Below, piece after piece: positions 950-12,911 of a stretch of DNA of 64,000 nucleotides. This DNA is from Anaerolineae bacterium. Lineage in GTDB: Bacteria; Chloroflexota; Anaerolineae; Anaerolineales; UBA6663. The notes under the pieces are model-generated. The model did not search any database, was not told the origin of the DNA, and saw only the letters and a list, made by a program, of their open reading frames with translations. Positions within the stretch are counted from its first letter, which is position 1; every line of letters starts with the position of its first letter. The stretch covers positions 27,001 to 91,000 of the forward strand of contig JBBIQY010000003.1 in the NCBI GenBank assembly GCA_037442085.1, in the 5' to 3' direction. The position numbers were made by a program, and so were the translations under genes.

Positions 950-992
950 TGACGGGCCCGCTACAGACGCATGCGGGGCCGCCAAGCGCGGT

Positions 993-1020
993 ATTCTAAA
1001 ACATTCTGCGGTCGAGTCAA
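993..1020 (-). promoter_or_regulatory. Sigma70-type promoter P2, identical tandem copy 71 bp upstream of P1
   Basis: Same TTGACT-16-TAGAAT inside the second 36-bp repeat copy. Confidence 0.45.
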
Positions 1021-1091
1021 TCGGCGGAAAGTATTGTGGGCAGGCCGCCCGGGCGAATGGTTATCCGGATCACGGGAGTATAATTGTGGAT

Positions 1092-1370
1092 ATGGCAACT
1101 CCAGCCCGAAACAGCGGTGCCAAACAACGCCGGCAACGCCTCAACACAGCTCTGGAGGAAATACTTCATTGTCTCCTCGCGCACTATGCGCCGAAGCGCG
1201 TGATCCTTTCCGGCTCGCTTGCGCATGAGACCGTGAGCGAGTGGAGCGACCTGGACCCGGTCATCATTAAGAAAACCGACCAGCCTTTTATCCGGCGCTT
1301 GCGCGAGGTGGCATTGCTTTGCCGCCCGACCGTTGGGGTGGATTTTCTTGTGACGCAACAACTGCTCTAG
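1092..1370 (+). CDS. Nucleotidyltransferase-domain protein (MNT-like), apparently C-terminally truncated
   Basis: VILSGSLAHETVSEWSDLDPVII resembles the GSxAxGxxxxxSDxDL motif of minimal nucleotidyltransferases. The ORF ends at VDFLVTQQLL, where family members normally continue. It stops 3 nt before lgt. Confidence 0.45.
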   Translation: MATPARNSGAKQRRQRLNTALEEILHCLLAHYAPKRVILSGSLAHETVSEWSDLDPVIIKKTDQPFIRRLREVALLCRPTVGVDFLVTQQLL

Positions 1371-8364: not shown

Positions 8365-9204
8365 ATGGGCGTCCTCTACCTCGTCGCCACGCCCATCGGC
8401 AACCTGGAGGACATCACCGCCCGCGCCCTGCGGGTGCTGCGTGAAGTCAGCCTGATCGCCGCCGAGGATACGCGCCACACGCGCGGCCTGCTCACCCACT
8501 TCGACATCCACACACCGCTCACCAGCTACTTCGAACACAACAAGCTGACCAAGCTGGACGCCATCCTGGCCGCACTCAAGACCGGCGACGTGGCGCTGGT
8601 GTCCGACGCCGGCATGCCCGCGCTCTCCGACCCCGGCTACGAGCTGGTGCGCGCGGCGCTGGCGGCCGGCCACACCGTTATCCCGATCCCCGGCCCGTCG
8701 GCGATCATCGCGGCCCTGGTCGCCTCGGGGCTGCCGACCGATGCGTTCGTGTATCTCGGCTTCCTGCCGCGCAAAGACGGCGAACGCCGCCGTCTGCTCG
8801 AGTCGCTGCGCGCCGAGCCGCGCACGCTCGTCGCCTTCGAGTCGCCCCACCGCCTGCTCGCTTCCCTGGACGCGATCCGTGAGACGCTCGGCGACCGGCG
8901 CGTGGCCGTGGCGCGCGAGCTGACCAAGCTGTTCGAAGAGATTTACCGCGGCACGGCCAGCGCGGCGCGCGCCTACTTCAGCGCCAAAGGTGTCGCCGGC
9001 GAGATCACGCTCGTCATTGCCGGCGCAGCGGGGTCGCCGGCAGAGCGGTGGGATGAGGCTCGTGTGCGAGTCGAGCTCAACCGGCTTCTGGCCGAGGGCC
9101 TGAAGCGCAAAGAGGCTGCGAAGCAAATCGCCGAACGCGCCGGCTGGCCGACGCGCAAGGTGTACCACATCGGGAAGCAAGGGGAGACCGACGAGCCTGG
9201 TTGA
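8365..9204 (+). CDS. rsmI: 16S rRNA (cytidine1402-2'-O)-methyltransferase
   Basis: LYLVATPIGNLEDITARALRVL...AAEDTRHT is the characteristic RsmI N-terminus. Confidence 0.9.
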   Translation: MGVLYLVATPIGNLEDITARALRVLREVSLIAAEDTRHTRGLLTHFDIHTPLTSYFEHNKLTKLDAILAALKTGDVALVSDAGMPALSDPGYELVRAALAAGHTVIPIPGPSAIIAALVASGLPTDAFVYLGFLPRKDGERRRLLESLRAEPRTLVAFESPHRLLASLDAIRETLGDRRVAVARELTKLFEEIYRGTASAARAYFSAKGVAGEITLVIAGAAGSPAERWDEARVRVELNRLLAEGLKRKEAAKQIAERAGWPTRKVYHIGKQGETDEPG

Positions 9205-9235
9205 GCACCGAACCCGTTATCCAGGCTGCTGCCAG

Positions 9236-9268
9236 GCCCTCGGTTATGCCAAAACCGGGGGCTTTTTT
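9236..9268 (+). terminator. Intrinsic terminator downstream of rsmI
   Basis: 10-bp stem GCCCTCGGTT/AACCGGGGGC (one G-U pair), 7-nt loop, then TTTTTT at 9263-9268. Confidence 0.75.
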
Positions 9269-9412
9269 ATGACACGAATCCTTTTCATCCCTCACTCGTT
9301 TATATCGGCGTGGAGGCTGTGTTTTCTCGGGTCACGGCCCATAATGCACCCGGCATGAATCCTTTTGCGCGCTCGCCCGTTCTCCCTGATGAACGCGCTG
9401 TGACTGGAGGCG

Positions 9413-10061
9413 TTGATGAGTGACGCCCAACTCGTCGCAGCGGCGCAGCGAGGCGAGATGCAGGCGCTGGGCGCGCTGTACGATCAGCACCACGAAGCCC
9501 TGTTCCGTTACCTGTGGGCGCGCGTGGGCGAGCGACAATTGGCCGAGGACCTAACCGGCGATGTGTTCATGCGGATGCTCGACGCGCTGCCGCGGCCGTA
9601 TGCCGAAAATTGTGTAATTCGGCCTGTAGGCGCGGGTCTGAGAGCCGCGCCTACGAAATTACACACAAATCGGCAAACCGCCCCTGCCGCGCTATCAGCC
9701 CTCTGCCGCGCCGTTCCGCGCCTGGTTGTATCGCATCGCCCGCAACCTGCTGATTGACTACTACCGCCGGGCCGAGCATCGCGCCCACGCGCCGCTGCAC
9801 GAGGCCGACGGCCAGGCCGCGCCCGAGCCGGACCCCATCATCCTCGTTGATCAACAACTTTCCGTGCAGCGTCTGCATCAGGCTCTGGCCATGCTCGACG
9901 AGACACAGCGTGAAATCGTAACGTTGCGCTTTATCTCCGGCCTTTCACTTGAAGAGACGGCCAACGCGCTCGGCAAAACCGAGGCCGCCGTCAAAGCCCA
10001 TCAGCATCGCGGCCTGCTTGCGCTGCGCCGCGCCCTCGCGGAAGAACAGGTGCCGCTATGA
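9413..10061 (+). pseudogene. ECF-type sigma-70 factor interrupted by a 97-bp insertion (frame 2 to frame 0)
   Basis: The two track ORFs (9413..9757, 9726..10061) are the N and C halves. Deleting 9595-9691 joins ...DVFMRMLDALPR to YQPSAAPFRAWLYRIARNLLIDYYRR, a normal region 2. Region 4 (LRFISGLSLEETANALGKTEAAVKAHQHRGL) is intact. Confidence 0.8.
9595..9683. mobile_element. 89-bp MITE-like palindromic insertion flanked by 8-bp direct repeat CTGCCGCG
   Basis: CTGCCGCG occurs at 9587-9594 and 9684-9691. The imperfect terminal inverted repeats are TGCCGAAAATTGTGTAATTCGGCCTGTAGGCGCGG and CCGCGCCTACGAAATTACACACAAATCGGCA. It has no coding capacity. Confidence 0.75.
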
Positions 10062-12655
10062 TCGAGAACCGTCTGCAAGACCGTTTAGCCCGGCTCGAAG
10101 CCGGCGCGGCGCTGGAAACCGCGCTGGCCGATCTGCCCCGCGAGGAAGCCGACCTCGTCCGGCTGGCGGCGCAATTGCGCGCCCTGCCACAGCCGGCGCG
10201 CGATTCGAGCACGGTGAATGCACAGCGCGCGCGCCTGCTGCGCGTCGCTCAACAACGGCGGACGACCATCGCTCCAACGCCAACGAAGAGCATGCCACGC
10301 TGGCTCTGGCCGGTGGCCGCCGTTGCCGGCATAACGGTCGTCCTCTTCCTGTGCGCGGCACTTGTGCTGGGCGGCGGTGCATTGTGGTGGAATGCCGGAG
10401 CGCGCGGCGTGACGCAGAACCCGACGCCCGGCGCCCTCCCGATTATCCAGGCAACGCCGATCCCGGTCGTGGTGGCCACACCCGATGCCCAGACGGCGCT
10501 GCTGGAAGATGTCCAGGGACTGGTGGAAGTGCAGTCGGCGGGAGAGGCCTGGAAAGCGGCAGGCACGGGCGCGCCGGTGCAGGCCGGACAGCGTGTGCGC
10601 ACCGGCGCGTTCTCCAGCGCAACGCTTGTGTTTTACGATGGCAGCCGCGCCCGCCTCGGCCCGAACACCGATATTGCCGTGGACGCGCTCGACGCGCCGC
10701 GCTCCGGCCGGCGCCTCATCCGGCTGACACAGACGACCGGTGAGAGCGATCATGATGTCGCGAAATCTACCGCGCCCGATTCACAGTACGAAGTCGCCAC
10801 ACCCTCCGGCGTCGGCGCGGCGAAGGGGACGGCCTTCCATGTCTCGGTGACGGCGGCCCTCATCCGCTTCGCCGTGAGCGAGGGCGTGGTGGCTGTCACC
10901 AACGTCAACGTGACGGTGATCGTCGTCGCCGGCCACGTCAGCGTCATCCCGCTCAACCAGCCGCCGGCGCCGCCCCTGCCGCGCTTCAGCGGCGAAGGCG
11001 AGGTGCAGGAGATTTCGCCGGGCGCCTGGCGTATCGCCGGCCAGTCGCTGGTCGTCACCGCTGAGACATCGCTCTTCGGCGAGCCACAGGTCGGCGACTG
11101 GGTCGCCTTCGAGGGTCGAGTCCTGCCCGACGGTACACACGTTGCCGACCGGATCATGCTACTGCGCCGGGCCATCGGCAACACCCTCACCTTCATCGGC
11201 GTGGTGGAGGCGATGAGCGCAGAAGTCTGGACGATCTCCGGGCGCGCGGTGCACGTGGCCGGCGCAACGATCGAGGCGGGCCTCACCGTCAGCGATACCG
11301 TCACGGTCACCGGCCTCATCAGACCGGACGGCATGCTGCAAGCACTCGCCATCCGCCGCCTGCCTGCGGGGAGCAGCGAGACGTTTACGCTGATCGGCGT
11401 ATTGCAGACGAAGGGCGATCCGGTCTGGACCGTCTCCGGCATCACCTTCACCGTCACACCAAGCACCACCCTCGACGCCGGCCTCGCCGTCGGCGACAGC
11501 GTGCGCGTAACCGGCGTGATCTCGGATGGCCAGCGCCTGGCGACCGCCGTTCAGCGCCTGAGCGCCGGCGTCGGCAGGTTCGAGTTCACCGGCATCGTCA
11601 TCAGCACCGACCCGTGGAACGTCAGCGGCGTCACCTTCACCACCAACGCCGAGACGGAGATTGACGCCGGCATCCGGGTTGGGAACCGCGTCCGCGTGAC
11701 GGGGCGCATCCTGCCGGATGGGACGCGGCTCGCTACCGAGATCGAGCAGCTCGACGACGGGCGCCGGCACGCCATCACGTTCACCGCCCGCGTCGAACGG
11801 ATTGATCCCTGGGTCGTCGGCGGTGTCACGCTCACGGTGGATAGCAAGACCAAGATCGAGGGCGTCATCCGCGTGGGCGATTGGGTCACGGTGAAGGGCA
11901 ACCTGCTGCCCGATGGCACCGTGGTAGCGAAAAAGATCCGGCGCGTCGCGGTGGGCGGCGGTTGCACGTCGGTCACCGTCATCGTCGTCGGCCTCAACGG
12001 CAACACGCTCACGCTGAGCGACGGGCGAACGCTCACGCTGGATGGTTCGATCACGGTAACCGGCCAGCTCAACCCGGCCAGCGTCGTTGTCGTGCAGACC
12101 TGCGCCCGCGACGACGGCGGCCAGGCCGTCGTCGCCATCATCGTTATCTTCCAACTCGAAGGGATACCCACCGCTACGCCTGCCCCGCCCTCCGGCTGTG
12201 CGCCCTTGCTGGTGATCGTCAACGGCCAGGTCAACCTGCCGGGCGGCAGCCTTGTCTCGGTCGGCGGCCACGACTTGCGGCTGGAACTGAAAGACAAGAA
12301 GAAGGACGAGTCCGAGATCAAGATCACCGGGCGAACCGACAAATGGGAAGTGAGGGTCAAAGTCAAGGACGACAAGATCGAGATCAAATCCAAAGGCTCC
12401 ATCGCCGTGAGCGGGGCCGGCAAGTACAACGCCGGCAGCGCGCTGACCGTGCAGGCGTGTGTCGGGCCGAACGGCCTGGTGATTGTGGTCAACGGCATCG
12501 CTCCCACAGGGGCGCCGACCACCGGGGCCGGCGGCCAGGTGACGCTCTGCCACATCCCGCCAGGCAACCCGGGCAAGGCCAAGACCATCACGGTGGAAGC
12601 GGCAGCGGCGGCGGCCCATCTGGCCCATGGCGATACGCTCGGACCGTGCCCGTAG
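10058..12655 (+). CDS. Anti-sigma-factor-like membrane protein: N-terminal cytoplasmic helix, TM, FecR-like domain, 5 DUF5666-like repeats, Cys/His C-terminal module
   Basis: ATGA overlap with the sigma gene stop. TM segment WLWPVAAVAGITVVLFLCAALVLGGG. FecR-like VQAGQRVRTGAFSSATLVFYDGSRARLGPNT. Five repeats of the form W.(I/V)SG....V......(D/E)AG..VGD.V.V.G...PDG...A..I. C-terminal LCHIPPGNPGKAKTITVEAAAAAAHLAHGDTLGPC. Confidence 0.75.
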   Translation: MIENRLQDRLARLEAGAALETALADLPREEADLVRLAAQLRALPQPARDSSTVNAQRARLLRVAQQRRTTIAPTPTKSMPRWLWPVAAVAGITVVLFLCAALVLGGGALWWNAGARGVTQNPTPGALPIIQATPIPVVVATPDAQTALLEDVQGLVEVQSAGEAWKAAGTGAPVQAGQRVRTGAFSSATLVFYDGSRARLGPNTDIAVDALDAPRSGRRLIRLTQTTGESDHDVAKSTAPDSQYEVATPSGVGAAKGTAFHVSVTAALIRFAVSEGVVAVTNVNVTVIVVAGHVSVIPLNQPPAPPLPRFSGEGEVQEISPGAWRIAGQSLVVTAETSLFGEPQVGDWVAFEGRVLPDGTHVADRIMLLRRAIGNTLTFIGVVEAMSAEVWTISGRAVHVAGATIEAGLTVSDTVTVTGLIRPDGMLQALAIRRLPAGSSETFTLIGVLQTKGDPVWTVSGITFTVTPSTTLDAGLAVGDSVRVTGVISDGQRLATAVQRLSAGVGRFEFTGIVISTDPWNVSGVTFTTNAETEIDAGIRVGNRVRVTGRILPDGTRLATEIEQLDDGRRHAITFTARVERIDPWVVGGVTLTVDSKTKIEGVIRVGDWVTVKGNLLPDGTVVAKKIRRVAVGGGCTSVTVIVVGLNGNTLTLSDGRTLTLDGSITVTGQLNPASVVVVQTCARDDGGQAVVAIIVIFQLEGIPTATPAPPSGCAPLLVIVNGQVNLPGGSLVSVGGHDLRLELKDKKKDESEIKITGRTDKWEVRVKVKDDKIEIKSKGSIAVSGAGKYNAGSALTVQACVGPNGLVIVVNGIAPTGAPTTGAGGQVTLCHIPPGNPGKAKTITVEAAAAAAHLAHGDTLGPCP

Positions 12656-12796
12656 CCTTCGCCCAATGTTGAAACATCGAGCTGACACTGGGACGCCCGC
12701 CGAAGCGGCCCGGGGCCAGATGGCTGAGTCCGTCGCCCTCGAATTTCCGCTCCGGATCCGGCCCGGGCTCAAATTCAGAAATCCTCGCTGTCTGCG

Positions 12797-12911
12797 GGGT
12801 GCAATCCAGATTTTTGGCCGCCCTTCGACTGCGCGCCGCTCAACGAGCGGCGCTCTCCTGAGCGAAGCCGAAGGATCAGGGCGCAGCCTGCCAAACAATA
12901 GAAATGCACCC
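12797..12911. repeat. Palindromic intergenic repeat, family 1, copy A (115 bp)
   Basis: GGGTGCAATCCAGATTTTTGGCCGCCC ... GCGCCGCTCAACGAGCGGCGC ... GGGCGCAGCCTGCCAAACAATAGAAATGCACCC. About 93 percent identical to copy B. Termini are GGGTGCA/TGCACCC. Confidence 0.9.

Follow-up and report, generated by a model that had tools for sequence, protein, structure and literature searches.

A very recent MITE insertion very probably inactivates an ECF sigma factor gene in an uncultured Anaerolineales bacterium

In the window, the whole stretch of 64,000 nucleotides from an Anaerolineae bacterium that was analysed here (contig JBBIQY010000003.1 of assembly GCA_037442085.1), the gene of an ECF sigma factor is interrupted by an 89-bp MITE. 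Our analysis indicates with high confidence that this is a very recent insertion, mobilised in trans, which inactivates the sigma gene and uncouples the translation of its partner gene. The MITE represents a new family; its kind and its effect, insertional inactivation, are well known, and the case reveals no new mechanism. The merit of the case lies in the unusually direct evidence of recency. The features of the locus are as follows (window positions).

9416..9594, plus strand: 5' part of the ECF sigma gene, codons 1-59 and 2 nt; start ATG at 9416, TTG at 9413 also possible; Sigma70_r2 positions 1-38 of 71
9587..9594, no strand: left target-site duplication CTGCCGCG; octamer single in the empty-site alleles
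9594..9682, plus strand: 89-bp MITE core GGCCGTAT...AAACCGCC; 62 full-length copies; hairpin with z = -5.5
9626..9654, no strand: central GC-rich hairpin with GTAG start, like a GTAG-tagged REP; inverted repeat, 14-nt arms, 93%
9684..9691, no strand: right target-site duplication CTGCCGCG; octamer single in the empty-site alleles
9692..10061, plus strand: 3' part of the ECF sigma gene, frame from 9693, stop codon TGA at 10059-10061; eight orthologues collinear
9416..9757, plus strand: present broken reading frame, 59 native residues and 54 read through the MITE and out of frame; stop codon at 9755-9757
10058..12655, plus strand: 865-aa membrane protein with FecR domain and five DUF5666 repeats (Pfam); start overlaps the sigma stop codon (ATGA)

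The assignment to the ECF sigma factors, made in an earlier note from the letters of the DNA, was upheld by Pfam. The 59 codons in front of the element match positions 1-38 of the 71 positions of the Sigma70_r2 profile, and the 122 codons behind it match positions 41-69 of the same profile, followed by Sigma70_r4_2, Sigma70_r4 and Sigma70_ECF. The earlier note had placed the split between regions 2.1 and 2.2; its location inside region 2 stands, and in place of that finer boundary the profile gives a break between positions 38 and 41. In silico excision of 97 bp united both frames and gave exactly the peptide that had been quoted before. The restored sigma factor comprises 182 aa, the same length as the intact allele in assembly GCA_034434215.1, and with sigma-2 and sigma-4 domains only and a size within about 180-200 aa it belongs to the ECF (group 4) sigma-70 factors. 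In the occupied allele translation quits the sigma frame after residue 59, and a protein with both domains cannot be made. The claim that both halves are undegraded also proved right, as they show 100% nucleotide identity to the intact allele of GCA_034434215.1.

Among 40 relatives, orthologues with 60-70% identity were present in 8 genomes, two from the same genus, five from the same family and one from the same order. All of them are uninterrupted, consist of a single frame and align with the restored protein free of gaps at the junction. The extra segment is therefore no insertion domain common to the orthologues.

The gene of the 865-aa protein is intact, and the ATGA at 10058-10061 joins the stop codon of the sigma gene to its start codon, in agreement with the coupling described earlier. 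The protein contains the FecR domain and the DUF5666 repeats, and no canonical anti-sigma domain was among its Pfam matches. A homologue with 44-59% identity also follows the sigma gene in 8 of the 8 orthologous loci, and we regard this membrane protein as a putative anti-sigma factor or sensor partner. On the other side of the sigma gene, a terminator-like hairpin with a T-tract (9234-9264) is located 3' of the upstream TP_methylase (RsmI-like) gene; because of this hairpin the sigma operon is probably a transcription unit separate from the TP_methylase gene. Scanning positions 9150-10150 for promoters and terminators revealed no sigma-70-like promoter, and no promoter-like site in the element; the hairpin at 9234-9264 was the one useful feature it brought up.

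The octamer CTGCCGCG that had been reported on both sides of the 89-bp hairpin element was verified at 9587-9594 and 9684-9691; a third copy is present by chance at 9703-9710. The length of 89 bp holds as well, and only the position had to be corrected: the block conserved over the 62 genomic copies, GGCCGTAT...AAACCGCC, spans 9594-9682 and starts 1 bp to the left of the claimed 9595-9683. In this family register the flanks agree at 7 of 8 positions, or the duplication has 7 bp with one extra C. Whichever register is used, the net gain from the insertion is 97 bp, since the empty-site alleles contain a single CTGCCGCG. Folded as a single strand, the element reaches -51.6 kcal/mol compared with -33.5 ± 3.3 for shuffled sequences (z = -5.5), and none of 200 shuffles folded as well as this near full-length hairpin. 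Long imperfect inverted repeats, another claim of the earlier note, were found in the form of a 36-nt inverted repeat with 75% complementarity, and the whole length pairs in the fold. The two ends agree with each other at 21 of 32 positions without gaps (the 22-mer end is GGCCGTATGCCGAAAATTGTGT), and the inner stem is formed by 14-nt arms at 9626-9639 and 9641-9654, which are 93% complementary. The sequence of this central hairpin, GTAGGCGCGG ... CCGCGCCTAC, begins with GTAG. The element lacks a reading frame, as had been noted; 89 bp are too short for a protein-coding ORF.

To count the copies, the element was compared by BLAST with the genome to which the window belongs (3.76 Mb in 158 contigs, 65% GC). 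This search, which the earlier note had proposed, revealed 62 full-length copies, 60 of them identical and two with one SNP at position 25. Together with several truncated copies they are spread over 51 contigs. Exact flush direct repeats border 40 of the 62 copies, with 8 bp in 26 cases, 7 bp in 8 and 9 bp in 6; in some of the remaining copies the repeat is offset by 1-3 bases, and in 7 there is none. A strong target motif was not seen among the insertion sites. The GTAG hairpin occurs 64 times in the genome, nearly always within the MITE. The pattern of dispersed copies with flush duplications of 7-9 bp is far beyond chance. Small, with a length inside the MITE range of about 70-300 bp, non-coding, with inverted ends and target duplications, dispersed, and mobile as judged from occupied and empty sites, the 89-bp element is confirmed as a MITE.

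A protein search with the C-terminal half of the sigma factor identified an intact relative of 182 aa with 96% identity. This protein is encoded on eight metagenome contigs of a sister lineage (~95% nucleotide identity), which carry the empty site. Six of the eight contigs were read; each comes from a different sample (JGI 3300010938, 3300003890 and four Logan runs), and their gene order is that of the window. In place of the MITE they contain a single CTGCCGCG, with about 95% identity on either side. Between the restored sigma factor and the allele of the sister lineage 177 of 182 residues are identical, with a dN/dS of 0.13, and the corresponding value for the 865-aa gene is 0.29; these values suggest no sign of decay in either gene. 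The sister lineage also differs from the window by indels unrelated to the MITE. Near window 950-1350 it has an additional fasciclin gene and an additional NTP_transf_2/HEPN pair, and at window 4621 about 300 bp are extra, with a gene of the 23S_rRNA_IVP family. At the neighbouring MITE site of the window's contig (C3:22402) the sister sequence is no guide to emptiness, as its contig becomes divergent and stops short of that site.

An even closer empty site was found in GCA_034434215.1, an assembly that was reached through exact matches to the 865-aa protein, which is identical there, and to a neighbour protein of 279 aa. Its contig DAOTZK010000142.1 aligns with the contig of the window over 12,657 and 3,118 bp (15.8 kb) with 0 mismatches. 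The MITE is absent, the 8-bp target is common to both alignment blocks, and the sigma gene forms an uninterrupted ORF of 182 aa. An empty site in a background without any mismatch marks the insertion as very recent and as a presence/absence polymorphism of a single clone. Of the two readings that the earlier note had left side by side, a very recent insertion or a reversible switch, the first is thereby borne out. Since the path of the occupied allele leads into a repeat with 62 copies, an assembler can take the empty path even where it is that of a minority.

These data also bear on the question of whether the MITE was mis-joined into a sigma gene that is intact in the true genome. The assembly is fragmented into 158 contigs, the relatives are MAGs, the element is a repeat with many copies, and a second assembly of the same clone lacks it, all of which could be expected from an artefact. 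On the other hand, mis-joining would not create a perfect duplication of an octamer of which the empty allele has one copy, and forty other copies show the same kind of duplication. Moreover, the independently built Logan contig SRR11582161_26738 starts inside the MITE and is 100% identical to window 9656-12834; the right-hand junction of the occupied allele is therefore present in an independent assembly. An assembly artefact is thus extremely unlikely.

If the MITE entered and left the sigma gene by precise excision at the 8-bp repeats, the ECF regulon would vary in phase and the intact allele would be a revertant. ON and OFF cells would then coexist in a clonal population with respect to an envelope-stress or sensor regulon, and perhaps also to further genes into which the MITE has inserted. 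Two alleles in one background with 0 mismatches over 15.8 kb would fit such a reversible switch, as would a very stable palindrome between perfect 8-bp direct repeats, an arrangement which favours slipped-strand deletion. Insertion and excision of IS256 have been reported as a mechanism of phase variation in staphylococci. However, the empty site is ancestral according to the sister lineage and the eight orthologues, and since the empty state is ancestral, excision is not needed to explain it. In addition, no footprint or intermediate was seen, and the same MITE hits unrelated genes and has no strong target motif, as one would not expect of a dedicated switch. MITE copies lie in genes only about half as often as random sites do, as expected for deleterious insertions. 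Switching is for these reasons very unlikely, and we take the empty allele as the probable ancestral state and not as the product of an excision from the sigma gene.

The MITE family has undergone a recent burst, as shown by the identity of nearly all full-length copies, and other genes were hit too. A gene of a DAO-type FAD oxidase is split by an identical copy at C4:14925 (Pfam DAO 3-93 and 113-353), and a gene of the enolase superfamily by an identical copy at C88:13706 (MR_MLE_C 3-83 and 91-218). For the copy at C88:13706 a target duplication could not be recognised, and the profile match lacks about 7 positions across the junction. A further copy has probably truncated the gene of an M14 peptidase, in which the profile match begins at position 43 just past the element. 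Judged by a crude codon-usage score, 20 of 60 MITE sites are bordered left and right by open, coding-like sequence of one strand, compared with 61% of random sites; under another scoring scheme the figures were 24 of 62 sites and 76%. About one third of the copies, or more, would therefore be genic, about half the random expectation by this crude score, and only three genes were confirmed by their domain halves. The deficit fits either a partial purging of harmful insertions or some preference for intergenic sites.

The depletion in coding sequence is what one would expect of a gene-inactivating element, and it speaks against the production of a functional sigma factor from the interrupted gene. 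Such a product would require that ribosomes bypass the element by moving from CCG in the left repeat to the same codon in the right one, or that the hairpin is removed at the RNA level. Identical take-off and landing codons are indeed present on either side of a strong hairpin, an arrangement that recalls gene 60 of phage T4. But the gap of 97 nt exceeds the known bypass distance about twofold, the data contain no hint of such a product, and Rfam offers no family for the element, as a scan of 9300-10100 gave no match at E <= 1. We consider the probability of this explanation as practically negligible.

In 40 relatives a search for the element gave nothing beyond weak matches to the central hairpin or to a diverged arm, and an exact 31-mer of its left end had 0 matches among 185,579 species genomes. 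A search with a degenerate end pattern identified related MITEs of 79-100 bp in three Anaerolineales MAGs (H5_CFX5, SAW132 and A05DMB24). They share the terminal block GGCGGTATGTCGA...TTGTGTAATTT with the MITE of the window, several have 8-bp duplications, and most have a central hairpin beginning with GTAGG. In contrast, their centres and right arms are diverged and they occur in few copies (6 in the 9-Mb genome of H5_CFX5, compared with 62 here). Since the element itself was not found in the 40 relatives and related elements exist in these three MAGs, the 89-bp MITE is an expansion specific to its lineage, within a MITE superfamily that extends through the Anaerolineales.

No transposase gene was found between MITE-type ends in the assembly, in which the interiors of IS elements are unassembled, so that a partner could be missed. 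The smallest contig has 2,964 bp, and resident multi-copy IS elements are present only as contig-end fragments. End-like matches outside the full copies were discarded as traces of a partner; they turned out to be only a truncated copy (C156) and MITE copies interrupted by another IS. The same applies to two variant end matches in H5_CFX5, which were MITE copies. Neither H5_CFX5 nor A05DMB24 contains an IS256 partner matching the related MITEs, and the IS256-family elements of these MAGs have other ends.

C-terminal parts of an IS256-family transposase (PF00872) are located at four contig ends (C101:107-340, C157, C73 and C136), and this resident element ends with GGTAGTTTGTCAAGTTCTGTGTAAAAGG. 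A near-identical end is also present in the Anaerolineae MAG A05DMB24. IS256 generates duplications of 8-9 bp and has inverted repeats that contain TTGTGTAAAA. The two ends of the MITE agree with the end of the resident element at 18 of 32 and 20 of 32 positions (shuffle p = 2e-4 and 5e-5) and share the pattern GG..GT.TG.C.A...TGTGTAA, although this amounts to only about 60% similarity. As the duplications have 7-9 bp, with 8 bp as the commonest length, and the ends are similar, an enzyme of this family is the best candidate, and we infer that the MITE was most likely moved in trans by an IS256-family DDE transposase.

A second multi-copy element of the genome, named IS 'X' here, was rejected as partner, since its ends (TAGGAGTTACGC...) are unrelated and it is itself inserted into MITE copies. 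It was observed at 11 contig ends (C141, C140, C110, C109, C98, C97, C81, C40, C22, C36 and C7), with the end TAGGAGTTACGCACTTGCC, an ORF starting with MNPPKCDELDYIHFLIA and an unassembled interior. Its target sites are the AT-rich arms of three 89-bp MITE copies (C81, C40 and C22) and otherwise AT-rich sites.

A distinct MITE-like element of 115 bp with the ends GGGGTGCA...TGCACCCC is located at window 12797-12911, just 3' of the 865-aa gene. Near-full-length copies number about 20 in the genome, mostly with 91-97% identity. The 95% sister lineage lacks the element and has about 8 bp (CTGTCTGC) in single copy; GCA_034434215.1 has it, and the contig there ends within the element.

Target duplications together with terminal inverted repeats characterise elements moved by DDE transposition, as opposed to REPINs. 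This distinction is relevant, as the 89-bp element could instead be a repeat of the REP/REPIN type moved by a RAYT tyrosine transposase, by which the sigma gene would still be inactivated. GTAG-tagged REPs have been described in Chloroflexi among other phyla (PMC3733652), and the central palindrome of the MITE likewise starts with GTAG. Hairpins with about 90% similarity also occur in several relatives. In the MITE, however, the hairpin lies between 30-nt inverted repeats that are bordered by target duplications of 7-9 bp, and in this genome it is nearly confined to the MITE. Furthermore, no Y1_Tnp/RAYT gene (PF01797) was found in the genome, which is 97% complete. The lack of a RAYT gene and the target duplications argue for a DDE-type transposition, and the REPIN route is highly improbable.

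As a MITE the element joins a list of bacterial families that includes Correia/NEMIS of Neisseria, RUP of Streptococcus pneumoniae and Nezha of cyanobacteria (PMC3733652). Like these, it is small and non-coding, has inverted ends, a target duplication of fixed size, a stable hairpin and many near-identical copies, is polymorphic in presence and absence and inserts within or beside genes. It differs from them by its new sequence, its GTAG-tagged central hairpin and its host, an uncultured member of the Anaerolineales (Chloroflexota).

Taken together, the data point to a non-autonomous DNA transposon that entered region 2 of the ECF sigma gene in its loop-coding part, copying its 8-bp target and adding 97 bp. 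The translationally coupled FecR/DUF5666 partner gene would thereby be deprived of the ribosome traffic from upstream. The knockout seems to be tolerated, which suggests that the ECF sigma factor is dispensable under the prevailing conditions. For annotation, the "genes" of 111 aa and 114 aa at this locus together represent one split sigma gene, and similar split pseudogenes are confirmed for at least the DAO-type oxidase and the enolase-superfamily protein. The 62 MITE sites provide a natural set of markers to follow strain dynamics in the source communities. We have before us an active MITE family in mid-burst in an uncultured member of the Anaerolineales, with one polymorphic insertion that disables a regulatory gene within a single clone.
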